Source: an uncultured bacterium (GTDB taxonomy: Bacteria; Hydrothermota; Tepidihabitantia; SM23-42). Taken from it: 64,000 nucleotides of DNA. This document shows positions 1 through 58,618 of the stretch, piece after piece (the first letter of the stretch is position 1; every line of letters begins with the position of its first letter). The notes beneath the pieces are model-generated. The model saw only the letters and a program-made list of their open reading frames with translations. It did not search any database and was not told the origin of the DNA. The translations under genes were made by a program, and so were the position numbers. The stretch lies in NCBI GenBank assembly GCA_964419565.1, contig CAYQPW010000008.1:28284-92283 (forward strand), read 5' to 3'.

Positions 1-2094
1 TGCAATGAATACTTTGATTTTCTCAAGTTCTTTCTTCTTGGCCACAATTTCCTTGTCGAGCTTTTCTTTATCCGTTTTTAATCTTGAGATATTCGTTTTC
101 AAATCATCCATTTTTGCCACCATGGTGACGGTTTCTTTCTTCTGTTTCTGAAGCGCGGTCAGTTCTTGCTTGGTATCTTTTAACTCCTCTTTGAGTTGCT
201 CCTTCTTTTCATCGATTTCTTTATTGATATCAACGAGCTCCTGCCGTCTCTTATCCAGCTTGGATATCATATCCGCCTCAATGACTTTGGCCTTTTCTAT
301 CCCTCCTTCAAGCTCAGAATGTTTTATCTTTAAATCACCGAGTTTTTCTCCTACTTCCTCAACGTTTTTTGCCATTTTCTCGACATCAGCTCTATACTTA
401 TCCCGTTGTTTAATGAGTTCCTTGGTTTCTTTCTTCAATTCAACCGTCGAGGCTTCCTCCTCTTTTTTGAGCATTTCTAGTTTTTCGCTGAGTTTGTTCA
501 CTCTTTCTTCGCGCTCTGATATTTTTCCTTCGATCAGATTGAGTTCCTTCTTGCGCGTATCGAGCAATTGTTTGACCTTTTCATCTTGTTCGACAGCCAA
601 TTTGATCTCTTCGTATTCCTCTTTCATCTTCGGTAAAGAATTGGTTATTTCTTGATATTCGCTATCAACTTCCTTGAGTTTCGCTTCCTTTTCATCGAGT
701 TCTTCGGTTACCTTAGCGAGCGTAGCTTTTTTATCTTTGAGTTCCGCATCGATCGCTTCGTATTTATCGGCTTCCGGTTTTAATTCGGCTATTTTCTTTT
801 TTGCTAACTCGATGGATTCGCCTAATTCCTGGGCTTCTTTTTTCTTGTGATCAAAGTCAGATTTAATCTTTTCGTATTCAGGCTCCAACTTACGTAAATC
901 TTGTTCTTTTTCTTTGAGCTCCGTAACTCTAGGTTCAAGATCATCGTGATCTTCCCTCAACTTTTCCAGGTTCTCATTCAGGGTGTCGAATTCCTTTTGA
1001 TTTTTGGCTAATTCCTTTTCTAAAGAAACACTTTCCTTTTTGGAGGTTTTATATTTTTCATCAAGTTCTTTGAATGATGTCTCGAGGGTACTGAACTCCA
1101 GTTGAAACTGTGAAATATTCGAAACAAGTTCAGCCTCTTCTTCTTTCATATTTTTAAGGTCTGCAGCCACTTTGTCGTGTTCTTCTTTGAGCTTCGTAAA
1201 TTCGCTATTTTCTTTTTCAAGGTTTTGTTTTTCCGCAGTAAGGTTGCCAATGTCCTCGTTCAGCTGCTCAAGAGTCCCTGTTTTGTCCTTTATTTCGGCC
1301 TTTAATTCGCTAACCCTGGAAGTAAGCTCTGGCTTTTCCTTTTTCATTTCATCGATCAGGGATTCATCTTCTTCTTTTGTCTTGGTCAGGGTTTCTACCT
1401 CAGCGCTGAGTTCTTCGAATCTTGTTTGCTCTGAGTCCCTGCTCTTCTTCACCGTATCAAGTTCTTTGCTTAGCGAATTCTTCTCTTCGTTCATAATTTT
1501 CAGGTCTTTTTCTGTTGCTCGAAGATCCGCGAGAGCATTCCTCAATGTCTGTTCAATTTCCTGATATTCAGTCTTTAATTTTTCGGTTTTAACCTTGATG
1601 CCGTTATATTGTTTCTCCTGATCGCTTTGTCCCTTCTGTATTTTTGCCAATTCTTTTTCAGCGCTGCTGAGTTCTTTAGTCAGTGTAGAATGGCGGTTTC
1701 TCATCTCTTTCATTTGGCTGTCTATTTTTGATTTTTCATCATCCGTTTTCTCGATTTCTTTCCTAAGATCTTTTAAATTCTTTTCAAGTTTTTCTTTTTC
1801 TACGGATAATTTATTTATATCTTTTTGGGTTAACTCAATCTTCTTTGCATCTTTCCCGGTTGATTTCAGGGATTCCTTCAGAGATTTTTCCTCTTTCTTC
1901 AGTGCTTCGATATTCTTTTTTAAATCATCAAGTTCACCGGATATTTCCATCTGTGAGGAATATGTTTCAGCTATTTTATCCTCTATGTCTTTTAATTCCT
2001 TTTTCTTCGCAACCAGATCCTTTTCAGCTTGTTCTATTTTTCCGAGTTTTTCTTCGAGATCGGCTAATATATCGACATCATCTTTTTTTGCCAT
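1..2094 (-). CDS. Very long K/E-rich coiled-coil protein (>=698 aa in window, 3' end runs off window start); no P-loop at N-terminus
   Basis: Own translation of minus strand from ATG (complement 2092-2094) preceded by GGGG RBS: MAKKDDVDILADLEEKLGKIEQAEKDLVAKKKELKD..., continuous heptad-like K/E/L-rich frame open to position 1; absent from ORF track because no in-window stop. Confidence 0.6.
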   Translation of the reverse strand, partial: MAKKDDVDILADLEEKLGKIEQAEKDLVAKKKELKDIEDKIAETYSSQMEISGELDDLKKNIEALKKEEKSLKESLKSTGKDAKKIELTQKDINKLSVEKEKLEKNLKDLRKEIEKTDDEKSKIDSQMKEMRNRHSTLTKELSSAEKELAKIQKGQSDQEKQYNGIKVKTEKLKTEYQEIEQTLRNALADLRATEKDLKIMNEEKNSLSKELDTVKKSRDSEQTRFEELSAEVETLTKTKEEDESLIDEMKKEKPELTSRVSELKAEIKDKTGTLEQLNEDIGNLTAEKQNLEKENSEFTKLKEEHDKVAADLKNMKEEEAELVSNISQFQLEFSTLETSFKELDEKYKTSKKESVSLEKELAKNQKEFDTLNENLEKLREDHDDLEPRVTELKEKEQDLRKLEPEYEKIKSDFDHKKKEAQELGESIELAKKKIAELKPEADKYEAIDAELKDKKATLAKVTEELDEKEAKLKEVDSEYQEITNSLPKMKEEYEEIKLAVEQDEKVKQLLDTRKKELNLIEGKISEREERVNKLSEKLEMLKKEEEASTVELKKETKELIKQRDKYRADVEKMAKNVEEVGEKLGDLKIKHSELEGGIEKAKVIEADMISKLDKRRQELVDINKEIDEKKEQLKEELKDTKQELTALQKQKKETVTMVAKMDDLKTNISRLKTDKEKLDKEIVAKKKELEKIKVFIA

Positions 2095-2102
2095 TATACC
2101 CC

Positions 2103-5100
2103 CTATGGTTCAACGTAAACCATTTTAGCAGTTTTCTCCTCCCGAGCCATGGGTTTGGATAGTACAGACCAGCGTTTTCCTAATGGAGAGACATATTTTG
2201 TTCTAACCAAGCCCAGGGGATGTGGTTTTATTCCTAAGATATCTTTTTGTACAGCAAAATTTTGTAATCGGTGGTAAAGAAAAATACCCGGTGCTTCATC
2301 GAGTATCTTTCTCTCGATTTTTTGATATAATATATTTCTTTGGTTGAAATTTCTTAATTTCCTTGCTTGATCAATATCGTGATCAATGTCCGGTGATGAA
2401 AAGAAGAAAGTATTTCCAGAACGGCCGCGCGACGTTGAATGGAACAAGGGATAAACGAAATTATCCGGATCTCCATTATCACTTACCCAACCCCGAAAAG
2501 ACAGTAAAGAATCACCCGCATACGTTTTTTCGATCATATTATGCCACGGCATAGGATTTATCTCGATGCGTACGCCGATCTTCACAAGGCTTTGCTTGAT
2601 ATACTCAGCTCGCTTTATTGCTGTTGCCGTATCAGTTATATCGAGTTTGTAAATATCAGGTAATCCTTTGGCAAAACCGGCGTCCTTAAGTAAACTCATA
2701 CTTTTCCCGGGATCAAATGCATAACCCTCGAGTTGATGATTGAAAACCTTCATTGATGGGGGGAAGATACCTTTTGCTTTGATCGCAGAACCTTTGAGGA
2801 ATTTATTGACCAGCTCATTGGTATTAATGGCATAGGATAAAGCCTGCCTGATTAATCTATTATTAAAAGGTTCTTTCTCGCAATTGATACAGATATATTG
2901 TATTGAGAGCTCGGGTATCGTATAGAGCGATTTTGGCATTTCCGTTCTTATTCGTTTCAGCGCTTCGCCAGTGGGTTGGAAAATGGAAAGAGATCGATTC
3001 TTGAACAGCTCATAACCTACGGTTTCGTCCTTTATAATGAGAAAATAGAACTCATCTATAGTGGGTCTTCCTTCGAAGTAGTGGTCATTAGAATGAAGGA
3101 TAATTCTGTTGCCTTTTTCCCAGGCAACTAATTTAAAAGGTCCGGCGCCCACAGGTACTTCCTCATCCAGGTATGGGTCTGCGATATTGCATGCCAGGTT
3201 TGCCAGGATGGGTCGAAAGGGATATTCTAAATTAACTTTCAGGGTGGATTTGTTTATTACTTCTACTCCGATACCCTGCCCTTCGTTACTTTCAGCTAGT
3301 TCTTGGGCACCGCTGATCATATCATAGAAACTTTTATTCGGTCCTCTGAGAGCTCTTAAAATCGCTTCTTTGATGTCTTGGGCATGAATCGGGCGGCCAT
3401 TATGATACTTCAAATTGTCCCGCAGATGGAAGATATATTCTCGACCGTCTTTTGATATTGAATAATCCTGGCAGAGGCCTGGTATTATATCCGCTCCACT
3501 GCCAAATTGGAATAATCCTGCAGAACAATTACAAATTATCTGATGCGAATTGACATCTGTTTTGCGGTCCGGTTTTAAAGTCAGTGGTTCACTCGATAAG
3601 CTCGCGGTTAAGATCCTTTTAGCTTTGACGTAAACCGGAGTCTGATCCGAGGCTTTGATGAACAGTTTCTTCAGAACATTATTTAATTCAGAAATTTTTG
3701 TAATAATAGCTTCATAAGATTGCCATACATTGCTCAGTTTTTTGTTCTCCTTGTCCACAGCACTGACAACGTTGGAAATTGTTTCTGCTTGTTTTTTTTC
3801 TTCTCCGAAAACACGGCTGATATCGTCGAGGAATATTTTAATTTTTGAATAATCTGGGGGTCTGATCCTCATGGGCAATGCAACCGCTCTTTTCTTGCCC
3901 AGTGCATGGCTATTTTTTCGTACCAAGGTCAGTTGTGGAATTATACTGGCAAATGCCTGTTCAGTTTCTGCCTCAAGCTGGACAAATTCTTCAACAATAG
4001 GTGAGATCATATCTATATATATTGAACTTCTTCCTTGCTCAATTTTCGCAAATACTGATAGCGTCTTGATCCGGTTGAATATCTTGGCGGTGGATGAAAC
4101 GAGCTTTTCAACCTTTTTTATTTCAATATCAATTTCCTTCCCCAGATTGTCGAACCGATCATAAATCGTTTGGATCTCTTTAAGAAACTTTTCAATCTTC
4201 GTGCCGAGATCGATAATTTCAGTCATATCCCCGGCCAGGGTTTCTTTATACCCGTGGATTTCTTCAAGGGAATTATATAATACATCGATTTGTGCAGTCA
4301 TATTACCGATACTGTGGTAAATCTTGCTTGGAAAAAGCGGCGGTTTCTTGCGTCCCGAGAATTTTTCGATTGTTCTCATGTTTTCCTGTAAGAAAAAATT
4401 ATATTGCCCTTCTAAATATGACATATTCATCATTTCAACAAGACGCGGATCCTGATCTTTAGTTAGTAACATTGTTTCACTGAGGCTGCATAAAGTCTGA
4501 GCCAGGGAATTTATTTGATTACAATGAATTGAAATCTCATCGATCGTATTCAGTGAGGTGGTAAGCTGTTTTCTCAAGACGTCCAGACCTTCTGATACGC
4601 TCGATTGCAGTTGATTGTTGACGATACTGTTTTGTTCCAGCTGGGTTATTATATTTTGCAAGGATGCGGTTGTGTCATCTATTGTTCTTAGAGATTGGAA
4701 CGACTTCGTGAGTAATCCGCGCGCGCGCGAAGACAGTTCGATAGTCTTGCCGAGTTCCAGAATTACGGGTTTGGTAAGTTGCTCGAGATTATTCAATAGA
4801 TTAGTGAAATCCTGGAAAGGAAGTTGGGCAAGCCTGGCGAGTGATAGACACTCTTTAGCGATAATTGCCAGCCCCCTACCTTCTCTTTTTGCATGATGAG
4901 CGCATATCTCTGTATTTTTGGCGAGATTGGCGAGTGATTTAGCAGATTTCACAAAAAGATCTGCCTTATCCTGTATCTCTTGCAGCATATTGATCAAGGA
5001 TTTAAGTAATTCACTTATGGACAGTAACTGATCATTAATATCCTCCATCGTTGTTTCATATATGAAATATAAATCCTTTAATTTCAAAACATCCTGCTGC

Positions 5101-5288
5101 AATGTCTTAGAATAATCATGAATTATATGTATTAATTCATCACCCCGTGAGAAATGAGCAAAGAGAACCTCTAATTCACGAGTGAGCTTCTGAATATTAT
5201 CATTATTTTTGTTCAACAATTGTGAGACTTCATTTACGTTATCCCCCAGGATTACAGTCTTTTTTAAGTATTCATTTATTTCTGTCAT
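2103..5288 (-). CDS. Fusion protein: N-terminal MCP-signalling-like domain(s) + C-terminal periplasmic solute-binding protein family 5 (OppA/DppA-like) domain; no signal peptide or TM
   Basis: ORF 2103..5354 trimmed to Met at 5288 (upstream part overlaps tRNA). Motif ANLAKNTEICAHHAKREGRGLAIIAKECLSLA (nt ~4838-4928) aligns to MCP hairpin-tip consensus [30 protein letters not shown]; C-terminal YIFHLRDNLKYHNGRPIHAQDI and GAGPFKLVAWEKGNRIILHSNDHYFEGRPTIDEFYF match SBP_bac_5 signatures. Confidence 0.7.
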   Translation of the reverse strand: MTEINEYLKKTVILGDNVNEVSQLLNKNNDNIQKLTRELEVLFAHFSRGDELIHIIHDYSKTLQQDVLKLKDLYFIYETTMEDINDQLLSISELLKSLINMLQEIQDKADLFVKSAKSLANLAKNTEICAHHAKREGRGLAIIAKECLSLARLAQLPFQDFTNLLNNLEQLTKPVILELGKTIELSSRARGLLTKSFQSLRTIDDTTASLQNIITQLEQNSIVNNQLQSSVSEGLDVLRKQLTTSLNTIDEISIHCNQINSLAQTLCSLSETMLLTKDQDPRLVEMMNMSYLEGQYNFFLQENMRTIEKFSGRKKPPLFPSKIYHSIGNMTAQIDVLYNSLEEIHGYKETLAGDMTEIIDLGTKIEKFLKEIQTIYDRFDNLGKEIDIEIKKVEKLVSSTAKIFNRIKTLSVFAKIEQGRSSIYIDMISPIVEEFVQLEAETEQAFASIIPQLTLVRKNSHALGKKRAVALPMRIRPPDYSKIKIFLDDISRVFGEEKKQAETISNVVSAVDKENKKLSNVWQSYEAIITKISELNNVLKKLFIKASDQTPVYVKAKRILTASLSSEPLTLKPDRKTDVNSHQIICNCSAGLFQFGSGADIIPGLCQDYSISKDGREYIFHLRDNLKYHNGRPIHAQDIKEAILRALRGPNKSFYDMISGAQELAESNEGQGIGVEVINKSTLKVNLEYPFRPILANLACNIADPYLDEEVPVGAGPFKLVAWEKGNRIILHSNDHYFEGRPTIDEFYFLIIKDETVGYELFKNRSLSIFQPTGEALKRIRTEMPKSLYTIPELSIQYICINCEKEPFNNRLIRQALSYAINTNELVNKFLKGSAIKAKGIFPPSMKVFNHQLEGYAFDPGKSMSLLKDAGFAKGLPDIYKLDITDTATAIKRAEYIKQSLVKIGVRIEINPMPWHNMIEKTYAGDSLLSFRGWVSDNGDPDNFVYPLFHSTSRGRSGNTFFFSSPDIDHDIDQARKLRNFNQRNILYQKIERKILDEAPGIFLYHRLQNFAVQKDILGIKPHPLGLVRTKYVSPLGKRWSVLSKPMAREEKTAKMVYVEP

Positions 5289-5296
5289 AGCTCTAG

Positions 5297-5369
5297 TAGC
5301 GGCGGAGGGATTTGAACCCCCGACACAGAGATTATGATTCTCCTGCTCTGCCAACTGAGCTACGCCGCC
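5297..5369 (-). tRNA. tRNA with CAT anticodon (Met / initiator / Ile2-lysidine not distinguishable)
   Basis: revcomp GGCGGCGTAGCTCAGTTGGCAGAGCAGGAGAATCATAATCTCTGTGTCGGGGGTTCAAATCCCTCCGCCGCTA folds as cloverleaf; anticodon loop ATCATAA. Confidence 0.85.
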
Positions 5370-5378
5370 TCAATCAGA

Positions 5379-5406
5379 ATTATATCTATAAATATTGTAT
5401 TGTCAA
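5379..5406 (-). promoter_or_regulatory. sigma70-like promoter TTGACA-N16-TATAAT driving tRNA(CAT) and downstream genes
   Basis: minus-strand TTGACAatacaatatttatagaTATAAT, -10 ends 9 nt before tRNA 5' end. Confidence 0.5.
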
Positions 5407-5535
5407 TGACGATTGGAATCTACGCTTGATGCATACTGGGCGAATAGTCGAATGCTGAAATATTAGCAGTTACCGTTCAACGAATTGTATTGTTGTGTTC
5501 CTGGTTGACTTCATACAAAAAAATGGTATTCTTCT

Positions 5536-6861
5536 ATGCCGATTATGCGAATTCCGATAACGATAAAATTCAGCACTTTGATATTTCTTCTAATCGTAGT
5601 GATTACGGGCGTAATATTCTGGTTCACACTGAATCGGGTAAGAGATGCTTTAACTCAAGAAATAAAACTTCAGGGCGAAATATTGGCGAATCTCATTGCT
5701 TTAAATGCCGAAGATCCGATAATAGCCAAAGATGATCTATATCTTGCGCGGCTGGTAAACGACGCGATCAAGAATGAAGGTGTAAGGTATACATACATTG
5801 TTGATAGTGATCAAATCATTCTCGCTTATGATAAGATGGACTGGATAGGACGGTCTGCTGACTCGATTATTAGGCCGGAAAACACATACCATGTAACACG
5901 GCCAATTGTGTTGGCTGGTAGAAAAAAGATCGGGGAAGTCCACGTCGGGCTTGATATTGAACGAATAAGCAAAATAACGAATAATATGCAGATTATCCTT
6001 ATTCTGATTTCCGTCATGGGATTACTTCTTGGCACGTTTGGTGCTATGTTACTCTCAAGATATTTGACCCGACCCATTCATGAACTTGTCGATGGCTTCA
6101 AAGCGATCGCTAATGGTGATCTTCGCCAGGTGCTCAGTAAAAAATCTGATGATGAGATCGGTGATTTAATGTCCGCGTTCAACCAGATGACCCAAAGCTT
6201 AATGGAAAAAGAGCAGATTAAGGATGCTTTTCGGAGATATGTATCGCGTCAGGTAGCTGAAGAAATATTTAAGAATCCGGATCAGTATATCGATACCTTA
6301 CGCGGAACCAGGCGCAAAGTTACTATACTCTTTGCCGATATACGGGGGTTTACACCACTGACCGAACGTTTGTCTGCCGAGGATGTTGTTACACTACTCA
6401 ATGAAGTTCTAACTAGTATGACAAAGGTGATATTCAAGCATGAAGGCACCGTCGATAAATTCATAGGCGACTCTATAATGGCTGTTTTCGGCGCACCAAT
6501 TGCCCATGTTGATGACACGGATCGATCGATACATGCGGCAGTCGAGATTCAAAGAGCCGTTCAGGAAATGAGTGAACAACGTAGAAGGGAAGAACGCGAA
6601 ATGATCAATGTGGGCATTGGGATTAATGCTGGTGAGGTGGTCGTTGGGAATATCGGCGCAAAAGTTCGTCTTGACTATACTGTGATCGGCGCGTCAGTTA
6701 ATATCGCAAATAGACTTCAGGAAGTGGCGAGTGGAGGTGAAATAGTTATTTCAGAAAGCGTTTTTAAGGAGACTACCGCGCCTTATAAGTATTCTGAGCC
6801 CATGCTCATCAAGGTAAAAGGAAAAGAAGATCCGGTTAAGATTTACCGGGTCTTGTATTGA
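5536..6861 (+). CDS. Membrane-anchored class III adenylate/guanylate cyclase (2 TM + HAMP-like linker + CHD cyclase domain)
   Basis: ORF 441 aa; TM segments, HAMP-like IANGDLRQV..., cyclase motifs ILFADIRGFTPLTE, KFIGDSIMAVFGAP, GINAGEVVVGNIG; alternative start at 5545. Confidence 0.85.
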   Translation: MPIMRIPITIKFSTLIFLLIVVITGVIFWFTLNRVRDALTQEIKLQGEILANLIALNAEDPIIAKDDLYLARLVNDAIKNEGVRYTYIVDSDQIILAYDKMDWIGRSADSIIRPENTYHVTRPIVLAGRKKIGEVHVGLDIERISKITNNMQIILILISVMGLLLGTFGAMLLSRYLTRPIHELVDGFKAIANGDLRQVLSKKSDDEIGDLMSAFNQMTQSLMEKEQIKDAFRRYVSRQVAEEIFKNPDQYIDTLRGTRRKVTILFADIRGFTPLTERLSAEDVVTLLNEVLTSMTKVIFKHEGTVDKFIGDSIMAVFGAPIAHVDDTDRSIHAAVEIQRAVQEMSEQRRREEREMINVGIGINAGEVVVGNIGAKVRLDYTVIGASVNIANRLQEVASGGEIVISESVFKETTAPYKYSEPMLIKVKGKEDPVKIYRVLY

Positions 6862-15120: not shown

Positions 15121-18100
15121 ATGCGAGAAATCTATTACGACGAACTCACCGGTAGCTATAATCGCCGGTTCCTGCACTATTGGATAGACAATGAAATAAA
15201 AAGAGCGACCCGGTTCCCCGCCAAATTTGCTATATTAATGCTCGATATAGATGATTTTCGCAATATAAATAATAGCTGTGGTCATTTAGAGGGTGATAAA
15301 GTACTCATCGAGTTCAGCCGTGTATTAGATATCAACATAAGAGAAGTCGACAGCCTTGTTCGTTATGGTGGCGATGAATACCTCATCTTAATGCCGAATA
15401 CCGATGAAAGTGGTGCGATCGAGCTGGCGCAAAGGGTCATGGATTATCTGAACGAGTCTGATATTGTCGGACACAAGATACACTGCAGTATTGGATATGC
15501 GATATTTCCTGAAGATGGAATTACTTCTGAACCTTTGATCAATCAGGCAGACAATTTAATGTACAATGCAAAGGAACAGGGGAAAAATCGGATCGGCTCA
15601 AAGCAGCAGGCAGTGAAAAACCTTCAGATCCCTTCATTAGAGACGATCGGACGAGAAGATGAAACAAACTGGTGTCTTGGTGAGCTTAAGGATTATGATA
15701 CGTTATTTGTTGCCGGTGGAGCTGGTATAGGAAAAACAAGGCTTGTGCTTGAAATCAAAGATCGAATCAATGCGCCGGTTTTTCTTAGGGGTAATGCCTA
15801 TGCAGCGTTAACATCGGTTCCTTATCACCCGTTTAAGAATATGTTCAGCGAGATGATTAAACGGGATTTTGGTCTAGTCCAGCGGGTTTTTAAGCAATTA
15901 CCGGCAATATCACAGGCTGAGATCATGAAGATCTTTCCGGCCGAGAGTGCACTTAAAGTCACTTATGCGGAAAGTCTTGACAAGTACAGGTTATATAATT
16001 CGGTCAGCGAATTCCTTCAAAGAGTTTATGACATTCATGCTCCCGGTAAAATATTATTGTTACTCGATGATCTTCACTGGTTAGATAAGCCAAGTTGTGA
16101 GTTGATGGATTTTGTGATAAGAAGCACTCATGGAAACTGTAAGATTTTTGGAACATACCGGATTGAAGAAATAAAGAATTCAGCGATTGAGGAATTCTAT
16201 AACGTTTGGATAAGAGAGAAACTTTATACACAAATAACGGTTTCTCCATTGAACGAAACCCAGACTGAGCGTTTATTAAAGGCGATCATGGGTAAGGCGC
16301 CGGGGTCGGGGTTCAAACATATTTTCAAACAAAGCGGCGGTAATCCATTTTATCTTGAGGAGATCATAAGGGAAATGGAAAGGCAGGGAAAACTCTACTG
16401 GAATGGCAAAGAGTGGGTTTTTGCCAGGAGGCTTGAAATAACGATCCCGAGTACAATTGAAGCAACGATCAATAGAAAACTCAAATTTCTTGACTCGGAA
16501 ATAAAGAAGTATCTTGAAATTGCTGCTGTTTACGGGCAGGAATTCGGTGCCGAAATCATCGCCTTAGCGAGTAATAGAAATGTTGGGCAGATCCTTGATG
16601 CGATTGATGAATTATCGAGACTTGGATTCCTGAAGGAACGTAGCCACGATAATCATTTTTTCTCTGAAGATCTGGTTCGTCAAATCGTATATAATAATAT
16701 CAATCGTCAGGATCTGATCAAATATCACCGGGCTGTTGGCGTAACCATAGAAACTATTTATCGCAATGTGCTGCCCAATTATTACGAACAACTGGCAACT
16801 CACTTCATGATCGCTAACGAAGTAAGTAAAGCGCTTTACTATTCCAAAGAAGCGGCTCGCAAAGCACAAAATAATTATGCGCACAGCGCAGCGATCAAAT
16901 TTTATGAGAATGCTTTGAAATACGAAGATAATATCGACGAAATATTCAAGATCAAATTTGCGTTGGCTGAAATATTTTTTTTGATAGGCAAGTTCGACAA
17001 AGCGATCGAGCAGCTGAACGTCTGTTTGAAAATAAACCCGAATTCGTATCGAGTACACGAGAAGCTTGGCAATGTTTATGAAGATATGGGTGATTACAAG
17101 CAGAGTATAAAACAATATCAGGTAGGATTGAAGCTAACCAGAGGAACTGATGCTGTCTATTCATTCGAGAGTGATATCGCCTGGGTGCATACCCGTCTGG
17201 GCGATTATAATAAAGCGGAAATTAAATGCCACAAAGTTTTGACGAAAAGAAGACATCTAAGCAAACAAACCCTTGGTGATACCTATTTGATATTGGGTGT
17301 TGTGTATCTCCGTCTGGGTAAATTCAAAAAAGCAGAATCATATATCAGAAAGGCGTTGAAGATCCGTGAGTCCAGTGGAGATAAAAAACGCATTGCCGCG
17401 TGTTATCTTGATCTTGGCTTGAACTACTATGAAAAATTAGACGAGGAGAAAAGCCATCATTTCTATAACCGGGCTTTGAAAATCTACAAGGAAATCGGTC
17501 ACCAGCAGGGTATCCTTATTGCGTATAATAATATCGGTGCACTTTATGCAAACACTGATTTAACCAAGGCCGAAGAATATTATCTGGAAGCTTTAAAACA
17601 GGCAAAATTGGTGAACGCAAAACAGTCGATCGTCTACCTGTACTCCAATCTTGGTGCCATTGAGTTTAACCGCATGATGTATGACCAGACGCTGCTTCAC
17701 TACAAAGAAGCGTTAAAACATGCAAAGCTCATGAATTATCCTGCAGGGATTGTTTTTAGTAATATTGGATTGAGTGATTTCTATCGAGAACAGGGAAAGA
17801 TAAAACGCGGCAAGCTGCATTTGGAGCGAGCGATCAAAGCGGCAGAACGAGTGGACATGAAGTACCTTCATCTTGACTGCATGAAAGAGGAAATAGACTA
17901 TCTGCTCCTTGAGCGGAAATTGAAAAAAGCAGATGCCCTTTCTAAAAAAATGTTATCAGCGCTACGTATGGAGCGAAAGGGTTCATACAAGGTCAATAGC
18001 TTCATTTATCGGGGAAAGGTATTCACCGAACAGAAGAAATATCCCAAAGCCCTTGAGCATTACACAAAAGCTTTCTCATATTTAAAAACATACCCCAGTA

Positions 18101-18270
18101 CGCGCTTAGCTGGCGAAATTTACTTTTTGCGGGGCATTGTGTACAAAAAACAAAAAAAGACAAGAGAAGCTCTGAAGATGTTCCTTGAGGCGACCAATAT
18201 TTTCCGGGCTAAAGGCAATCTGAGATTCGTCGATAAGATCGAGCGGGAGATTACCGAAGCACATATTTAA
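15121..18270 (+). CDS. Multidomain signalling protein: N-terminal GGDEF diguanylate cyclase domain (GGDEY with RxxD I-site) + AAA/STAND NTPase + C-terminal TPR array
   Basis: REVDSLVRYGGDEYLILM; P-loop LFVAGGAGIGKTRLVLE; long TPR-like repeats to C-terminus. Confidence 0.8.
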   Translation: MREIYYDELTGSYNRRFLHYWIDNEIKRATRFPAKFAILMLDIDDFRNINNSCGHLEGDKVLIEFSRVLDINIREVDSLVRYGGDEYLILMPNTDESGAIELAQRVMDYLNESDIVGHKIHCSIGYAIFPEDGITSEPLINQADNLMYNAKEQGKNRIGSKQQAVKNLQIPSLETIGREDETNWCLGELKDYDTLFVAGGAGIGKTRLVLEIKDRINAPVFLRGNAYAALTSVPYHPFKNMFSEMIKRDFGLVQRVFKQLPAISQAEIMKIFPAESALKVTYAESLDKYRLYNSVSEFLQRVYDIHAPGKILLLLDDLHWLDKPSCELMDFVIRSTHGNCKIFGTYRIEEIKNSAIEEFYNVWIREKLYTQITVSPLNETQTERLLKAIMGKAPGSGFKHIFKQSGGNPFYLEEIIREMERQGKLYWNGKEWVFARRLEITIPSTIEATINRKLKFLDSEIKKYLEIAAVYGQEFGAEIIALASNRNVGQILDAIDELSRLGFLKERSHDNHFFSEDLVRQIVYNNINRQDLIKYHRAVGVTIETIYRNVLPNYYEQLATHFMIANEVSKALYYSKEAARKAQNNYAHSAAIKFYENALKYEDNIDEIFKIKFALAEIFFLIGKFDKAIEQLNVCLKINPNSYRVHEKLGNVYEDMGDYKQSIKQYQVGLKLTRGTDAVYSFESDIAWVHTRLGDYNKAEIKCHKVLTKRRHLSKQTLGDTYLILGVVYLRLGKFKKAESYIRKALKIRESSGDKKRIAACYLDLGLNYYEKLDEEKSHHFYNRALKIYKEIGHQQGILIAYNNIGALYANTDLTKAEEYYLEALKQAKLVNAKQSIVYLYSNLGAIEFNRMMYDQTLLHYKEALKHAKLMNYPAGIVFSNIGLSDFYREQGKIKRGKLHLERAIKAAERVDMKYLHLDCMKEEIDYLLLERKLKKADALSKKMLSALRMERKGSYKVNSFIYRGKVFTEQKKYPKALEHYTKAFSYLKTYPSTRLAGEIYFLRGIVYKKQKKTREALKMFLEATNIFRAKGNLRFVDKIEREITEAHI

Positions 18271-26473: not shown

Positions 26474-27961
26474 ATGAAGGTATTATTAGCCGGCTTTAAT
26501 GTCGACCTCGGTGCGCTTAAAGAATACAAGAAAAAGAACGTTATTTTAACACCCGAGTCGATATCCGCAGCTTATGCCCGGATCAGCCGAAGTCCTAAAG
26601 AAGTAGATAAACTGAGACAGGAATCAAGAAAAGAGGTCGCTAAAGCGCGGCGTTCTAACCGGACGATTATTTTTGAGATGGGGCACCATTCAGTCGCCGA
26701 ACACGCAGTCTTTAATTTTGATATAATCGGTATTTCACGTATCGCCATCGAAGAACTCGAAAAATTCCGTTTGTGTTCTTATACGGAAAAATCCCAGCGT
26801 TATGTAAGATTAAAAGGTGATTTTGTCATTCCCGAAGAATTAGCTAAATCCGATTTAGTCGATGAGTACTGTGCGATGATAAAAATCCAGAACGACACTT
26901 ATAAAGAACTATATGAAAAAATCAGTGCCCATAACATCGAGAGACTTTCCGGTAAAGAAATAAACAAAAAACAGACGAAGATATTATATAATTTAGCCAA
27001 GGAGGATGCAAGATATATCCTTTCTATGGCGACACAAACCCAGGTCGGCGCGACGATAAATGCACGTAACCTCGAATTAATGATCAGGCGATTTGCTTCC
27101 CATAATTTAAAGGAGGTCAACGAGCTTGGACAAAAATTCTATGCATTAGTACACAAGATCGCGCCTTCGATCATATTATTCCATAAAGCCAATGACTATG
27201 ACCAAAAAACATACCCTGGTTTGCAGAAACACATGAGAAATTTTGAGGTTGAGAAGATCAGAAATTCTGAAAAGAAAAAAAACAGTGACGTTGAGCTTGT
27301 CGATCATACGCCAGATGGAGATAATAAAATACTCACGGCACTTTTATTCAAGTCGTCGAAATTAACTTATAAACAAGCACTACAAGCTATAAAGAAGATG
27401 TCAAAAAAGAAGAAAATTGAATTTTTTAAGAAAGCATGTTCTAATATGGAGTTATACGATGTCGCATTGAGAGAATTTGAATATGCTAACCTGACGTATT
27501 CCTTGATCGTTTCTGCTGGTTGTTTTGGCCAGCTTAAGCGCCACCGTCTTGCTTCAATGACATGCCAGGATTATGACCCCGCACTCGGTTTTACGATCCC
27601 CGATTCAGTGATAGATGTCAATGAGGAGAAAAAATTTGTTGATATAATAAAGAAATCCGAAGAAGTCTACGAAAAAATAGAAAAAAAACACCCGCATCTT
27701 GGTGCATACATCCTCACTAATGCGCACCGCAAAAGAGTACTTTTAAGAGTCAATCTCAGAGAGCTCTATCACATATCCCGTTTGCGCGAAGATCCTACAG
27801 CACAGTGGGATATAAGAGATAAAGCAAAAAAAATGTCGGCACTTGCCAGAAAGGTCATGCCCATAACCGCGTCACTGCTCGCAGGCAAATCAGATTATCC
27901 AAAGATCTACAAAGCTGTATATGGAAAAAACCCAAAGATAACAGAAGTTCCCCCGTTATAA
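26474..27961 (+). CDS. thyX: Tandem-domain flavin-dependent thymidylate synthase ThyX (two ThyX-like halves)
   Basis: First half EHAVFNFDIIGISRIAIEELEKFRLCSYTEKSQRYV (RHR replaced by KFR, S-QRY kept); second half FGQLKRHRLASMTCQD (RHR kept, Ser/QRY lost); 495 aa. Confidence 0.8.
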   Translation: MKVLLAGFNVDLGALKEYKKKNVILTPESISAAYARISRSPKEVDKLRQESRKEVAKARRSNRTIIFEMGHHSVAEHAVFNFDIIGISRIAIEELEKFRLCSYTEKSQRYVRLKGDFVIPEELAKSDLVDEYCAMIKIQNDTYKELYEKISAHNIERLSGKEINKKQTKILYNLAKEDARYILSMATQTQVGATINARNLELMIRRFASHNLKEVNELGQKFYALVHKIAPSIILFHKANDYDQKTYPGLQKHMRNFEVEKIRNSEKKKNSDVELVDHTPDGDNKILTALLFKSSKLTYKQALQAIKKMSKKKKIEFFKKACSNMELYDVALREFEYANLTYSLIVSAGCFGQLKRHRLASMTCQDYDPALGFTIPDSVIDVNEEKKFVDIIKKSEEVYEKIEKKHPHLGAYILTNAHRKRVLLRVNLRELYHISRLREDPTAQWDIRDKAKKMSALARKVMPITASLLAGKSDYPKIYKAVYGKNPKITEVPPL

Positions 27962-44253: not shown

Positions 44254-44736
44254 TTAGAAAGCTGCTGTACAGTACCAGTAGTCGGGTTTCGGAACGTCCG
44301 TTGTTTGTTGTGAAACGTTCTGAATTTCCAATCTGCCGTCGCTTGACACGACCCTGAAATAACAGGCGCCGATCGGTATTTCTCCAAAGAATATCTTCAG
44401 GTAATAATCACCTAATACGTACGGACCAAAAACTTCAACGGAATAAGCGGTAATTCCTAATTGACCAGTGAATTCGATTTCAGTGCGAAGACTTGCTCCT
44501 TCATAGAACTCGTGATACAAAGGCAGGTCTTTTTCGAATCGATCGGTAAAATCTATTTGCATACGTACGCCGCAGAGGTTGCCATAGATATCGTAATAGG
44601 CAGCGGAAACCCAGGTATCCCATATATGTGGAGGTGCCATGAAATCATCGCTATGAATGTCAAACAAATTGGTTCTTTCACGGCAGCTTAACAGACAGAG
44701 TATCATAATAGGTAATATATAAGAAAAGCGCTTCAT
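44254..44736 (-). CDS. Lipoprotein, family A (copy 1 of tandem duplicated cassette)
   Basis: Lipobox LLSC followed by RERTNLFD; paralog of 45311..45754 (shared RER.N.FD, DF.PP, FEK, YFG.IPIGA). Confidence 0.6.
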   Translation of the reverse strand: MKRFSYILPIMILCLLSCRERTNLFDIHSDDFMAPPHIWDTWVSAAYYDIYGNLCGVRMQIDFTDRFEKDLPLYHEFYEGASLRTEIEFTGQLGITAYSVEVFGPYVLGDYYLKIFFGEIPIGACYFRVVSSDGRLEIQNVSQQTTDVPKPDYWYCTAAF

Positions 44737-44745
44737 CTTATCTCC

Positions 44746-45159
44746 TCAAAGAATCGTTTTGATGCCTAATGACAATTTATTTCGGTAAGAATACTGGAAA
44801 TCAAATGTTGGTGTGTGCTTTGCTGATTTTGATGCCTTAACATGCTTCAGTTGATAATACAGCGCCCGCAACGTAAATACCACTGCACCGACTGCGCAGA
44901 TATTCCTTAGATTATCATAGCGTATTGTTTTATCCCAGTTTTCAATTGAGCTTCTTATTGAATCACTATAAATATAATCCTCGTACGCTTTTTTACCAAG
45001 GGTGTGGAAAATGCCTGTGCCGATCCCGAATCCAATACCAACAAAACCATTCAACAATACTTGTTTTGTGTAGCTCTTTGGTTTTACGACATTAGCCTGT
45101 TGTATTAAGGTATCAGCAGAGGTATTAAAACAAAATACAAAGATCAGTAAATGTGTCAT
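44746..45159 (-). CDS. Small secreted/membrane protein, family B (copy 1)
   Basis: Signal/TM then NGFVGIGFGIGTGIFH glycine-zipper-like; paralog of 45764..46183 (NGF..G.G...GIFH, NW..T, RNICA.GAV.F, LYY). Confidence 0.55.
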   Translation of the reverse strand: MTHLLIFVFCFNTSADTLIQQANVVKPKSYTKQVLLNGFVGIGFGIGTGIFHTLGKKAYEDYIYSDSIRSSIENWDKTIRYDNLRNICAVGAVVFTLRALYYQLKHVKASKSAKHTPTFDFQYSYRNKLSLGIKTIL

Positions 45160-45310
45160 TTTTCCCCCTTATCTCAGTATAATATTAAGAAACCCGATGT
45201 CAACCATGATCAATCAAATGTCCGTGCGGATCTTACTGCCCGATAATAAAATTGCGATTGGCTTGTGATTATTTATTAACTGATAAGATTACTGTATTGT
45301 TTATACGTAA

Positions 45311-45754
45311 TTATTCTGCGATCGGCTTGATGACCCTGGCGCCATTATCATCTACAATCGCAAAGGTTGCTGCACCGATCGGTATGCCGCCAAAATAGAC
45401 AGTCAAACAAAAAAGCCCGATATCATACGTGGCATATACATCCCGGTCATAGATACGATCACCATAATTCATCCGAACGTCAAAACTTGTCATCTCAGTC
45501 TTTACACTGTCGACAAATTCATAGAGTATATTATGTAAAATAGTTTCTTTTTCAAATTCTTCAACGAAATTTACAGTAAAATGAACGCCGATCAAAATCC
45601 ACTGCTCATTATATATCGCTGAATCAGCAAGCGCGGAAAAGATAGCTGGAGGCGGTGTAAAATCATCACAGCCCGGATCGAACATATTGTCTCGTTCCCG
45701 GCACCCCGCCAGTAAAAGCAATAGCATTCCGAGGATTTTAACATTAGATCTCAT
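45311..45754 (-). CDS. Lipoprotein, family A (copy 2)
   Basis: Lipobox LLAGC followed by RERDNMFD; paralog of 44254..44736. Confidence 0.6.
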   Translation of the reverse strand: MRSNVKILGMLLLLLAGCRERDNMFDPGCDDFTPPPAIFSALADSAIYNEQWILIGVHFTVNFVEEFEKETILHNILYEFVDSVKTEMTSFDVRMNYGDRIYDRDVYATYDIGLFCLTVYFGGIPIGAATFAIVDDNGARVIKPIAE

Positions 45755-45763
45755 ACGATATCC

Positions 45764-46183
45764 TCACAACGCTTTTTGTATGCAGAACACCCATTTTGAA
45801 GTATCGATATATTTGAAGTCGAACAAGGACGGTGATTTGAGAGCGTCAGATTGTTTTGTCTGCCTGTTTTTTATGTGATAATACAAGGTTCGAGCAGCAA
45901 ATAAAACAGCTCCGCCAGCACAGATATTGCGTACATTATCATTGAGTTTTGTTCTTTCCCAGTTTTCGACCGCCTCAGCGACGGTCGTGCTATTTTGATA
46001 ATCAGTATAAGCGTGATTGCCGCGGAGATGAAAGATACCGGCTGTGATGCCAAGTCCAGCACTTAGAAAACCGTTGATAATAACCTGTCTAGAATGAGTC
46101 TTGCGCAATACTCGTTGATCGACTTTCAAGCTGTCATTATTTAGATTAAAAAAACAAAGAATGAGCATGCACTGCGCCATCAA
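45764..46183 (-). CDS. Small secreted/membrane protein, family B (copy 2)
   Basis: paralog of 44746..45159; same 9-nt spacing to downstream A gene. Confidence 0.55.
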   Translation of the reverse strand: MMAQCMLILCFFNLNNDSLKVDQRVLRKTHSRQVIINGFLSAGLGITAGIFHLRGNHAYTDYQNSTTVAEAVENWERTKLNDNVRNICAGGAVLFAARTLYYHIKNRQTKQSDALKSPSLFDFKYIDTSKWVFCIQKAL

Positions 46184-55932: not shown

Positions 55933-56904
55933 TTACTTTTCAAAAATTTCTACTACTTCATTGACCGCCGGCATGCGGTTATGTTTATAAAAGAAAATCC
56001 TCTGATAATGCGCGTGGTCGGTCACGTAAAAATCATCGTTGATTAAATCAATAGCAACTGTTTTGTTACTCGCAAAATAGTTGCCGATAATAAATTCCAA
56101 GATGAGAACAACAACCGCAATTGCCAGGGTGATCGGCATTCGCAGAGCCTTAATAGAGAAATCCTTTTTCTGCCGTATCTTCTTTGGCGTTGGTTTTGCA
56201 TAGGCCATGGTAATTTGACCTGTGGACAGAAGACGATACAAGTATGAGTAAGTACGGAACTTGCCCAATCCTGAAATCTCGATCATATCATCGACGCTGC
56301 GATGACCATTGAGCAATGATAAAACACGTTCTTCCTCGGCTGATGGTTTCAATTTAAGTTCCGGACGTTCGACCTTTTTAAAAACGATATCACCAGAGGT
56401 AATAGATTTACTGATCTTGGACCATTCATCAAAACGACGTGCAGCTTCAAGGATCAGACCTTCGGTATTCATGCGTATTCTTATCACACTTTTTGGATAG
56501 ATAATCGAGTTCTGTTCGAATTTAAAAGCGCCGTCGTTCCATGTAAAGATCTCGTCAATGACTTCCTGTATTTTAAATTTTATAAGGCTTTCCACTTGAT
56601 CCCTGGTAACGTACTTGTCTTCCAGGATAATATTCATAATAGGTCTTTTTGTTTCCTGGTGGATTTCTTCGACGAGTTCGTAGACATTCTTACCGATAAT
56701 CCCAGATCTTACCAGATACTTCTCCATCCTTTCTGCTTTCTCACCCTTTTCGTAGAAAGCTCCGGTAACCTGTCCAGTAGAAAAACCGATATCAACTACC
56801 TCATTACGGCGTTTGATCTTTAATACGCCGGTGAGATTCTCCTGCGATATTAGTTGCATAACACTCGACAGATTAAGACTTTTTAGATCACCCTCAATCG
56901 GCAT
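55933..56904 (-). CDS. DUF4388 domain-containing protein
   Basis: N-terminal GDLKSLNLSSVMQLISQENLTGVLKI typical of DUF4388; C-terminal TM. Confidence 0.65.
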   Translation of the reverse strand: MPIEGDLKSLNLSSVMQLISQENLTGVLKIKRRNEVVDIGFSTGQVTGAFYEKGEKAERMEKYLVRSGIIGKNVYELVEEIHQETKRPIMNIILEDKYVTRDQVESLIKFKIQEVIDEIFTWNDGAFKFEQNSIIYPKSVIRIRMNTEGLILEAARRFDEWSKISKSITSGDIVFKKVERPELKLKPSAEEERVLSLLNGHRSVDDMIEISGLGKFRTYSYLYRLLSTGQITMAYAKPTPKKIRQKKDFSIKALRMPITLAIAVVVLILEFIIGNYFASNKTVAIDLINDDFYVTDHAHYQRIFFYKHNRMPAVNEVVEIFEK

Positions 56905-58618
56905 GGTGCTCCCTTATCATAGAAAAAGATATTATATAAGAAATAATTGCGATAATCGCGGCGAAGAGGAAAACAACTGGACCAAGGGGCAGAGTTATCC
57001 AACCGGTTGGTTTTACGAAGATATACGGGGAGAAAAGAGGGATATAACCGATCAGCACCAGGCATACGAGGATCGAACCGACCAGATGTTTTTTAATATA
57101 TATCAAACCTGCACCGGGGATGATGATATTGAGTGCGTAAAGTATGATCTTTTTAATCACTCTTCTTCGTCTGCCAACAGTTCTTCGTAAGGCTTGTTCG
57201 ATTTCATCCTTTTTTGTCGACTTAAATCTTGTAAAACAGTCCTTGCAGATTACCTCTTGATCGATTTCTTGCGAACAGTCTTTGCATATCGGACGCCCAC
57301 AGCTGCTGCAAAAGAAGGGCGGGGATAATTTGAAAGGGATAAAACTCATGATCAGAATAAGAACCAAGGGTATAATATAAGCAGTTTTGACGATGCCATT
57401 GCTTTCCAAATTCTCGGCCATAACATATTTGTAAAGATCATTATTATCCGGTGTTATATCAACAAAATCTTCATAGGGGCTAATAAATCCTCGACGGCGG
57501 GCTTCCTCCATATACCTGGAGGATTCTGAATATTCGATATTTCTCAGCTTCAACAGACCCATATTAAAATATGCTTCCCCCCGGTCTTGTATTAATATCG
57601 CCATGTTATATAACGATTCGGCGAGTGCCGTTTCATCATATGCTGCATAGATGTTAGCCAGATTATTGACGATGGCGATATTCCGGTTGCCGTCATAGAA
57701 AAGGTCTTCATAAAGCTCCATTGCTTCTTCTGTGTTGCCTTCCTGTTTTAAGCCATAGGCTAAGAATTCCCGGTCAATATCATGCATTTCCTGTGCATTG
57801 ATCGCCGTGTCGTATGTTACGAGTTCATATATTTGATAGCTTTGATTATTTTCTTTGAGGAAAACTATGAAATTATTGATAGGCAGAGAAAGTACGAAAA
57901 TTAGCAACAATATAAGGAGATCTAATCTTAACCAGTTTTTTTCCCGTTTTGTCATCACCAGCATGAGGAGAAAAGCATAGCATACAAAAATAAGGTATGG
58001 ATTGCGCAATACTATGATCGGTATTAGAAGCACCAGAATTTTCAGAATATCCGCGAAGCGAAAGTGAAATCGCGGCCAGATCTGGTGGCTCAAAGCCGGT
58101 AAATAGTAAACAATTTTCACGATAACATAGATCACTCCCCAAAGGAATGCTGTGGCAAAGAGCAATATTATCAGATTAGTCATAGTAAAAAGCTGATTTC
58201 TAAAATCAGATAATACCGGAAGAAATAATGCCGTTCGAACGTTGCTTAAGTCACGATGCATGACAGCTAAGGATATGAACGATAAGAAATTCTCAACCGC
58301 CGCCGAATCGAAGTGAGTGGCAAGCTGTAATTTACTGACTTTTGTGTCATAATCAGTTGCTTCTTTGGCTTCCCAACGAAGAACTGCTGACAAGTTAAAA
58401 TTTCTCCTCATATGGAGTTTCTTGAGCAGGGAGTCAGCCTCGGAGTTACCTGAAGTGCTGCGCCAGAACCAGAGTACAACCGGATCATCAGCAAACTCGG
58501 ATATGCTCTGATAGCCACGCGTAAGATTGATAAATACCGAATCGCTTGCCGGTGAATTGACAAAATGCTGATAATTTTTACTGAATTGAGCGACAAAAAG
58601 CAGTAGAAAAATCGACAT
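56894..58618 (-). CDS. Polytopic membrane protein with cytoplasmic TPR-like region and Cys4 zinc-ribbon
   Basis: 574 aa; multiple TM; CSSCGRPICKDCSQE...CKDC. Confidence 0.55.
   Translation of the reverse strand: MSIFLLLFVAQFSKNYQHFVNSPASDSVFINLTRGYQSISEFADDPVVLWFWRSTSGNSEADSLLKKLHMRRNFNLSAVLRWEAKEATDYDTKVSKLQLATHFDSAAVENFLSFISLAVMHRDLSNVRTALFLPVLSDFRNQLFTMTNLIILLFATAFLWGVIYVIVKIVYYLPALSHQIWPRFHFRFADILKILVLLIPIIVLRNPYLIFVCYAFLLMLVMTKREKNWLRLDLLILLLIFVLSLPINNFIVFLKENNQSYQIYELVTYDTAINAQEMHDIDREFLAYGLKQEGNTEEAMELYEDLFYDGNRNIAIVNNLANIYAAYDETALAESLYNMAILIQDRGEAYFNMGLLKLRNIEYSESSRYMEEARRRGFISPYEDFVDITPDNNDLYKYVMAENLESNGIVKTAYIIPLVLILIMSFIPFKLSPPFFCSSCGRPICKDCSQEIDQEVICKDCFTRFKSTKKDEIEQALRRTVGRRRRVIKKIILYALNIIIPGAGLIYIKKHLVGSILVCLVLIGYIPLFSPYIFVKPTGWITLPLGPVVFLFAAIIAIISYIISFSMIREHHAD

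Follow-up and report, generated by a model that had tools for sequence, protein, structure and literature searches.

Solute-binding proteins usually serve chemoreceptors as separate periplasmic partners, as in the pairs DppA/Tap and MBP/Tar, and free periplasmic DppA signals in this way to the Escherichia coli chemoreceptor Tap (PMC8050422). Among receptors of other design, the Helicobacter pylori protein TlpD is soluble and carries its sensor, a CZB domain, C-terminal to the signalling domain (PMC13001251); DosM of Vibrio cholerae (VC1403), part of an F9-type system, has two signalling domains that span both CheA/CheW layers of a cytoplasmic array (PMC7534058); and the Trg-like protein Tls of E. 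coli B2 strains sequesters FlhDC (PMC12623472). The gene considered here lies on the reverse strand of a 64,000-nucleotide stretch of DNA from an uncultured bacterium of the GTDB lineage Hydrothermota; Tepidihabitantia; SM23-42 (contig CAYQPW010000008.1, positions 28,284 to 92,283, of GenBank assembly GCA_964419565.1; hereafter the window, numbered from its first nucleotide). Its predicted product combines hairpins of the methyl-accepting chemotaxis protein (MCP) type with a C-terminal solute-binding domain of family 5 (SBP5).

The reading that we favour, with a probability of roughly 60%, is that this product works in the cytoplasm as a chemoreceptor with two signalling domains, much like DosM, and senses through an internal binding domain of the peptide type. 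Its soluble architecture of two hairpins followed by a DppA-like domain is very probable, whereas the coupling of the protein to the Che proteins CheA and CheW is only slightly favoured. The strongest support for the chemoreceptor reading comes from a second gene of the same kind: the gene in the window (paralog A) has a soluble paralog B, which stands directly ahead of cheW-cheY-cheA in the same genomes. The parts of paralog A were delimited by alignment, profile searches and AlphaFold models (predicted local distance difference test score, pLDDT, 78 for the full length and 84 for the N-terminal half), as follows.

2103..5288, reverse strand: receptor coding sequence (paralog A, soluble MCP-MCP-SBP5 protein of 1061 amino acids), stop codon included.
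4458..5288, reverse strand: predicted MCP hairpin 1, residues 1-277, with descending helix 2-132, turn 133 and ascending helix 134-277 (AlphaFold, profile matches).
4836..4931, reverse strand: tip 1, residues 120-151, ANLAKNTEICAHHAKREGRGLAIIAKECLSLA, the best-conserved stretch of the N-terminal half.
4326..4457, reverse strand: inter-hairpin segment, residues 278-321, with a variable loop, a short helix (286-310) and a conserved PPLFP loop (AlphaFold, alignment).
3663..4325, reverse strand: predicted MCP hairpin 2 (degenerate), residues 322-542, with helix 322-420, turn 421-424 and helices 425-465 and 481-542 (AlphaFold, profile).
3969..4076, reverse strand: tip 2, residues 405-440, RIKTLSVFAKIEQGRSSIY...ISPIVEEFVQLE, with K408, T409, L410 and E417 invariant.
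3615..3662, reverse strand: linker from hairpin 2 to the SBP5 domain, residues 543-558 (16 residues), non-helical and of low pLDDT.
2169..3614, reverse strand: DppA-like family-5 solute-binding domain, residues 559-1040 (PF00496, 1DPP, Foldseek).

An earlier reading of this DNA, made from the letters alone (the sequence-only reading), had recognized an MCP tip motif near residues 121-150, and that assignment holds: residues 120-151 (nucleotides 4836-4931) align gap-free to the canonical MCP tip, of whose consensus they retain N, the I/V position, two A, G-x-G, A, I/V-A, E and L-A, without the four residues ahead of the canonical motif. The residues near the turn (125-151) that are invariant in the family are N125, A133, G137, G139, L140, A141, I143, A144, L150 and A151; a concentration of invariant positions at the turn, as the helical half shows here, is what a chemoreceptor would be expected to have. 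The Pfam model MCPsignal (PF00015), which the sequence-only reading had named as a check and whose lack of a significant match it would have taken as refutation, gave a divided answer. By the letter of that criterion the single sequence fails, with 26.0 bits (E 9.7e-6) against a gathering score of 34.6, because tip 1 departs from the MCP consensus, but the family level reverses this: a profile built from 16 family members (first ~556 residues) matches the Thermotoga maritima MCP TM1143 (2ch7/3ja6) at E 4e-14 to 8e-14 over query residues 66-274, and also the soluble receptor TM14 (3g67) at E 9e-10. When the same profile was searched against a representative library of 1.84 billion proteins, just 12 clusters fell below 1e-30, all of them the family itself, followed after a wide gap by 30,425 proteins at E<=1e-3; the non-family proteins among the matches listed cover query residues ~10-280, mostly through their own C-terminal parts, as is usual for MCPs. 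The AlphaFold model, a kind of evidence that the sequence-only reading had also envisaged, consists of two helical hairpins and an SBP5 fold, with hairpin 1 at a pLDDT of ~80-90; a Foldseek search with the helical half was non-discriminating, returning mostly Rad50, SMC and other generic coiled coils, and MCP structures only at E 0.03 or worse (2ch7 at probability 1.00, E 0.03). Tip alignment and profile matches confirm, by homology, that hairpin 1 is a true MCP signalling hairpin.

A second, degenerate tip had been proposed some 300 residues further on, and it is found ~290 residues after the first. The motif LSVFAKIEQGRSS... occupies residues 410-440 (nucleotides 3969-4061); the tip itself reads KTLSVFAKIEQGRSS, and the GRGF element of MCP tips is absent. 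Behind this tip, helices 425-465 and 481-542 are split by a conserved PDYSKIK loop. When a hidden Markov model of residues 286-548 was aligned to 133 independent MCP targets, its tip coincided with the canonical MCP hairpin tip in 132 of them (best domain per target), with S421 at a constant four-residue offset from the position that aligns to G137 of hairpin 1, a regularity not expected of composition-driven coiled-coil matches. In the family profile, hairpin 2 also weakly matches the N-arm of 2ch7. The second tip is more canonical in the distant relative P0075 (LLSLYASIEAARSGE), in which Pfam finds two MCPsignal stretches, and likewise in paralog B (LLGLYAGIESARSG), there also without GRGF. 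The segment between the hairpins has the lowest pLDDT of the helical half and is the site of length variation among orthologs. Tip 1 and tip 2 are mostly 275-289 residues apart in A, as against 277-280 in B, and the distance from tip 2 to the GWxSD motif is mostly 512-516 residues in A and 514-519 in B; among canonical MCPs, 12 were recovered with two canonical tips, and six of these space them 281-287 residues apart. By these comparisons the protein is a tandem of two predicted MCP hairpins, the second of them degenerate.

The same results could be read as a coincidental similarity among coiled coils, or as two genes fused by an error of sequencing or assembly. The Pfam score below the gathering threshold, the generic coiled coils of the fold search and a direct hhalign comparison of hairpin 1 with hairpin 2 (probability 6.5%, E 0.006; tips in register, but too weak to use) would fit such an explanation. 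It is contradicted by the profile match to solved MCPs (E 4e-14), by the tip registration in 132 of 133 targets and by the conservation of the fusion: 36 homologs align over 79-100% of the query at 37-100% identity, with lengths of 833-1094 amino acids (three are truncated entries; 33 of the 36 measure 982-1094), and all 36 have the same domain order in independent assemblies that include two closed chromosomes. A 100% identical protein (P0001) is encoded on JGI contigs from three different JGI samples. This conservation, together with the closed chromosomes and the identical JGI copies, rules out the frameshift or chimera that the sequence-only reading had named as its alternative and leaves a single gene; artefact or chance is extremely improbable.

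In one scan of species-representative genomes, the two closed chromosomes among them, full-length orthologs of A (36-86% identity; L009-L027, L043; closest to the window, at 86%, MAG JBARXB01) were found only in metagenome-assembled genomes (MAGs) of WOR-3 / Candidatus Stahlbacteria. The hairpin-plus-SBP5 unit also occurs in other arrangements. In protein P0037, two N-terminal transmembrane helices accompany an SBP5 domain and an MCPsignal match that is strong (143 bits); a 1606-amino-acid open reading frame of MAG STE_202 (L044, 764-5581) consists of two hairpin-plus-SBP5 units, in which Pfam finds two MCPsignal and two SBP5 domains; and a 1515-amino-acid open reading frame of another uncultured bacterium (L045, 7475-12019) carries each MCP-like hairpin with its own SBP5 domain behind it.

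Paralogs A and B align collinearly from residue ~30 to 1043, with 28-30% identity, and B measures 1046-1049 amino acids in most of its 69 clusters. The scan recovered A and B together in nine genomes, to which a later look-up added CP070834.1; both closed WOR-3 chromosomes hold the pair, CP070664.1 as L015 and L041 and CP070834.1 as L025 and L090. PF00015 is passed by paralog B and by distant relatives (60.6, 83.2, 92.7 and 143 bits; 60-93 bits for B), and Pfam recognizes two MCPsignal stretches and SBP_bac_5 in the B copy of L041 and in the B-like copy of L030. Tip 1 of B reads RNAGITAFHAGxxGRGFEVIAREM, and A and B have in common a tip-1 signature, N-x-x-I-x-A-[HYF]-x-A-x-x-x-G-[KR]-G-[LF]-x-[IV]-I-A-x-E, that is not found in ordinary MCPs. 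Behind B follow, in this order, cheW, a single-domain cheY, a ~505-amino-acid cheA (with Hpt, dimerisation, HATPase and CheW-like domains), a CheC/CheX phosphatase gene, a gene for a ~800-amino-acid TPR protein, a TPR-Roadblock/LC7 gene, a second Roadblock gene and usually PCMT, as identified by phmmer with E. coli Che proteins and then by Pfam (L041, 9896-20539; L090, 8178-20676; L028-L047). CheW, CheY and CheA are encoded behind B in 12 of the 13 genome loci with enough flanking sequence, and likewise in L088 and L090; the CheC/X gene, two TPR genes and a Roadblock gene are present wherever the contig reaches far enough. Upstream of B, the peptide/pyruvate transporter gene cstA is placed divergently in both closed genomes.

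The C-terminal domain was identified consistently by sequence and by fold. PF00496 spans residues 601-953 (E 8.8e-77); among solved structures, E. coli DppA (1DPP, E 1.9e-58) ranks first, followed by the glutathione/haem-binding proteins HbpA/GbpA and by OppA and MppA; and Foldseek with the AlphaFold model returned GbpA/DppA at E ~1e-29 with a template modelling score of about 0.7 (normalised to the target). The sequence-only reading was right to call this stretch of ~480 residues a bona fide family-5 domain. In the HMMER alignment, the motif GWVSDNGDPDNF pairs with GWTGDNGDPDNF of DppA; within it, D937, which is invariant in the family, aligns with DppA Asp408 inside an identical DNGDPDNF motif, and in DppA Asp408 is reported to bind the amino group of the peptide. 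The NCBIfam equivalog model for DppA (NF043070) gives 192 bits against a cut-off of 1005, and the closest solved relatives of the domain bind dipeptides, glutathione, murein peptides and oligopeptides. The domain therefore has a binding fold of the peptide type but probably another specificity.

No signal peptide, lipobox or transmembrane helix was detected in the 36 orthologs or in 12 B paralogs. The maximum of the Kyte-Doolittle hydropathy in 19-residue windows is 0.97-1.56 across the 36 family members, with polar N-termini, in agreement with the lack of a signal peptide and transmembrane segment already remarked upon in the sequence-only reading, and the SBP5 domain sits C-terminal to about 555 residues of cytoplasmic type. 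The predicted receptor is soluble and cytoplasmic. The SBP5 domain may be thought of instead as a cytoplasmic module for peptide binding, storage or chaperoning, or as a tethered solute-binding protein that is exported by a non-classical route and serves an ABC importer on a helical stalk. It is indeed closest to the transport proteins DppA, GbpA and OppA, and public pipelines label family members as "ABC transporter substrate-binding protein" or "peptide/nickel transport system substrate-binding protein", besides "methyl-accepting transducer domain-containing protein". The soluble character of all 36 orthologs and 12 B paralogs, the DppA equivalog score far short of its cut-off, the fusion to a signalling domain and the position of B in a che operon all speak against a role of this kind, as does the neighbourhood: within 10 kb, no peptide-type (Dpp/Opp) permease or ATPase genes were found in the window, L001, L002, L003, L041 or L090, and the ABC genes in those flanks comprise a small ABC_tran gene and an efflux set of the MacB/FtsX type, which is unrelated. 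A non-sensory role of the domain is very improbable.

Paralog A is flanked on its own strand by a tRNA gene, a promoter-like site and a coiled-coil gene.

5379..5406, reverse strand: sigma-70-type promoter-like site, TTGACA-16 nt-TATAAT, a perfect 12/12 consensus 10 nucleotides upstream of the tRNA gene.
5296..5369, reverse strand: tRNA gene with CAT anticodon (Met or Ile2), recognized by ARAGORN and by reading of the sequence, ending 7 nucleotides ahead of the receptor ATG.
1..2094, reverse strand: co-oriented K/E-rich coiled-coil gene, with ATG at 2094, 8 nucleotides past the receptor stop, and a Shine-Dalgarno-like GGGGG between them.

The minus-strand reading frame of the receptor terminates at 2103 and begins, in a mechanical list of open reading frames, at TTG 5354. 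The right start is ATG 5288, giving 1061 amino acids, because the stretch upstream of it is the tRNA(CAT) gene; the start at 5288 adopted in the sequence-only reading is retained over TTG 5354, which falls inside this tRNA. The N-terminal peptide AEQENHNLCVGGSNP in several database entries is translated tRNA: the gene calls of P0004, P0007, P0008, P0010 and P0019 begin within the tRNA and have a spurious N-terminus, MAEQENHNLCVGGSNP..., of which the GGSNP part is the T-arm in translation (GGTTCAAATCC in the window, 5289-5354, reverse strand). In all 19 of the paralog-A loci compared (L002, L009-L027, L043 and window 5296-5406, reverse strand), the receptor has the tRNA(CAT) gene immediately ahead of it in the same orientation, mostly with a gap of 7-9 nucleotides to the start codon. 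The promoter-like site, the sole 12/12 match in window 1-5600, is a consensus match only and a putative promoter, and no terminator-like site follows the tRNA on the receptor strand in the window. The arrangement suggests a tRNA-mRNA co-transcript, in which the receptor mRNA would be nearly leaderless once the tRNA has been processed. Both receptor paralogs lie behind tRNA genes: tRNA-Phe(GAA) is found on the same strand upstream of B in 8 of 10 loci checked (L028, L033, L034, L037, L040, L041, L047 and L090), at distances of 44 nucleotides to about 1 kb.

The coiled-coil gene is directly downstream of A in all 19 loci with enough downstream sequence. Its product measures ~712-738 amino acids across loci and 387 in CP070664.1; in contig L003 (13195-15348), identical to the window, it has 717 amino acids, the last 19 codons lying outside the window edge. 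The termini are conserved (MAKKDDxDILADLEEKLG... and ...KELEKIKxFIARLREAQ...QISF), and the gene, whose product has a K/E content of 37%, is the cause of the AT skew of -0.44 in window 1-2000. Neither Pfam nor the PDB gave a hit; the NCBIfam matches are composition-driven (SMC, Rad50 and others), nearly all far below their cut-offs. Among them, TIGR04211 reaches 71 bits against 65, yet covers only the coiled-coil segment of the model and is uninformative, and a match to HmpF, a coiled-coil protein of pilus taxis, was judged to be bias at 24.7 bits against a cut-off of 200. Beyond the coiled-coil gene, the four A loci for which genes have been called (L001, L002, L003 and L005) all continue with a YitT/DUF2179 gene. 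On the other side of the tRNA, and divergent from it, the window has a gene for a membrane-anchored HAMP plus adenylate/guanylate cyclase protein (5536-6861, forward strand) that is kept in the close relatives L003-L005; as a partner of the receptor this cyclase is ruled out, since it is missing at that position in CP070664.1 (L001).

Several observations weigh against A as a peptide-sensing, DosM-like chemoreceptor. Tip 1 deviates from the near-universal MCP consensus; in Tsr numbering, the positions of R388, G390 and F396 read H, K and L. Tip 2 has lost GRGF, which makes a DosM-style contact with a second baseplate doubtful, and the connection between the two hairpins, which is broken and contains proline, is not a continuous helix, so that an extended rod is no more than a possible geometry. 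In place of DppA Arg355, which clamps the carboxylate, the family has D or N; with the clamp not conserved, the ligand is not simply a dipeptide. A never adjoins che genes, only B does: no che gene turned up in those stretches of the window that were annotated (roughly 1-15 kb and 25-60 kb), by phmmer of the whole window, or in the flanks of the A loci. Across all loci (~10 kb on each side) and the window, phmmer gave no match to CheR, and to CheB only through its receiver domain. For the presence of B or CheA in the organism of the window, the nearest case is a Candidatus Stahlbacteria MAG with B and CheW (L038), and neither of two JGI homologs of B that were examined derived from the samples of the window. 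Finally, the only cultured WOR-3 strain (sy37) bears pili but displayed no motility (PMC12285271).

The main alternative is an MCP-derived protein that has been repurposed. Paralog A would then act away from CheA and CheW, its hairpin bundles forming with the ~720-amino-acid coiled-coil protein an assembly platform (cytoskeletal, positioning or sequestering) which the SBP5 domain renders responsive to a metabolite. In favour of this, the strictly conserved neighbours of A are a tRNA and the coiled-coil gene, with no che genes; tip 1 of A falls below the Pfam threshold, while B scores 60-93 bits; the degenerate tip 2 keeps four invariant residues, which implies some conserved partner; and E. 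coli Tls, which sequesters FlhDC and may act outside the Che pathway, is a precedent (PMC12623472). Yet A shares the tip-1 signature and the module lengths of the che-operon paralog B, as co-assembly in one array requires, and within the helical half its conservation peaks at tip 1, just as it does in functional MCPs; no domain can be recognized in the coiled-coil partner, and nothing about it is specific for a cytoskeletal role. Repurposing is on balance an unlikely explanation.

In the favoured reading, that of a cytoplasmic chemoreceptor, the SBP5 domain would serve as the sensor, mounted by the 16-residue linker on the end of the ascending helix of hairpin 2; this attachment would correspond to the bundle end farthest from the tips, the usual site of action of input domains. 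The two lobes of the domain could close on a peptide-like ligand, probably one whose amino group is free, and lobe closure would alter the helix packing in the bundle and thereby change the output at tip 1; imported peptides would be the obvious ligand candidates, in keeping with the cstA gene that is divergent from B in both closed genomes. Given that A matches B in its dimensions and has a related tip 1, its simplest and most likely place would be in the same CheA/CheW array as B, either as a second sensory receptor or in a structural role like that of DosM; the co-translated coiled-coil protein, with which A probably works, may contribute to the assembly or positioning of that array. The TPR and MglB-like Roadblock proteins, the lack of CheR and CheB nearby and the cultured strain with pili but no observed motility point to an output other than flagella, perhaps type IV pili or cell polarity; literature searches on chemotaxis, flagella and motility in WOR-3 returned nothing on Che systems. 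A bolder version of this model is doubtful: WOR-3 would have a wholly cytoplasmic, methylation-independent array, in which soluble double-hairpin receptors read imported peptides through their DppA-like domains and CheY, TPR and MglB-like Roadblock proteins carry the output to pili or polarity and not to flagella, while A, on its tRNA-led transcript with the 720-amino-acid coiled-coil protein, would have the structural part in building or positioning the array. Such a receptor-plus-filament scaffold would be without a described counterpart.

Other genes of the window are recorded here for completeness. A 1049-amino-acid protein with AAA_16, TPR and GGDEF domains is encoded about 10 kb from the receptor (15121-18270, forward strand), and a GGDEF/AAA_16 protein occupies the matching position in CP070664.1 (L001). 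A Thy1 (ThyX) family protein of 495 amino acids (26474-27961, forward strand), long for a member of this family, has halves without detectable mutual similarity. A tandemly duplicated two-gene cassette without Pfam hits (44254-46183, reverse strand) comprises lipoprotein-like open reading frames of 160 and 147 amino acids that are paralogous to each other (E 2e-26) and a second paralogous pair of 137 and 139 amino acids (E 4e-33). A PatA_N gene (323 amino acids) followed by a 574-amino-acid gene without a Pfam hit (55933-58618, reverse strand; L001, 16852-19537) is kept beside ferredoxin/POR genes in both the window and CP070664.1.

If the proposed function is true, taxis or other behaviour in these bacteria would be controlled by compounds that have already been imported, a metabolism-linked form of sensing with a sensor domain that could be purified. 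The small class of double-signalling-domain receptors known from Vibrio would gain a second and very different lineage, with a bearing on how cytoplasmic arrays are built, and WOR-3, a widespread phylum with a single cultured strain, would offer a first functional handle on its signalling. The conserved trio of tRNA, receptor and coiled-coil gene is an unusual operon design in itself. A literature search for fusions of MCP and SBP5 domains returned only separate solute-binding proteins that bind receptors, and the combination as a whole (two hairpins with a fused cytoplasmic DppA-like domain, two paralogs per genome, a che-TPR-Roadblock cluster and a tRNA-receptor-coiled-coil operon) was not found described in the searchable literature.

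Compared with DosM, paralog A is likewise soluble with two MCP hairpins per chain, its tip spacing of ~280 residues is close to the 281-287 of the six canonical double-tip MCPs, and paralog B lies within a che cluster. It differs from DosM in its degenerate second tip, its first tip off consensus, the broken segment between its hairpins and the ~480-residue SBP5 domain that follows; moreover, the WOR-3 cluster encodes one single-domain CheW, whereas the DosM cluster has a triple CheW (PMC7534058). For the receptor in the window, a sandwich array with two baseplates is hypothetical. TlpD resembles it in having no membrane anchor and in placing the signalling (MA) domain first and the sensor last, for an intracellular cue; it has a single hairpin and a zinc-binding sensor of ~65 amino acids, in contrast to the two hairpins and the large, two-lobed sensor of the periplasmic-binding-protein type here. 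Tls is comparable as a member of the MCP family that perhaps acts outside classical CheA signalling, but lacks the SBP5 domain, the double hairpin and the coiled-coil partner.

With DppA and its relatives (GbpA/HbpA, OppA, MppA) the sensor domain shares the fold (E 2e-58) and the GWxxDNGDPDNF motif, including the residue aligned with Asp408, and DppA, as is proposed for this domain, is a peptide-binding protein that feeds a chemoreceptor; here, however, the domain is fused, cytoplasmic and without a signal peptide, no peptide ABC genes are linked to it, Arg355 is replaced by D or N, and the equivalog score of 192 bits is far below the cut-off of 1005. A cytoplasmic family-5 fold that serves as a ligand sensor and is fused to an output module is found in SgrR (NCBIfam PRK13626), where the output is a DNA-binding domain instead of a pair of MCP hairpins; the SgrR model matches A and B weakly, at E 0.019 and 4.7e-12, far below its cut-off. 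Each element of the receptor therefore has a known precedent, be it soluble receptors, C-terminal sensors, double signalling domains, DppA as an input or cytoplasmic SBP5 sensors. The judgement of the sequence-only reading that the architecture is unusual holds in part: a sensor at the C-terminus is familiar from TlpD, but a cytoplasmic DppA-like SBP5 domain is an unusual kind of sensor. Across a whole phylum, the binding protein has here been moved into the cytoplasm and fused behind the signalling domain.

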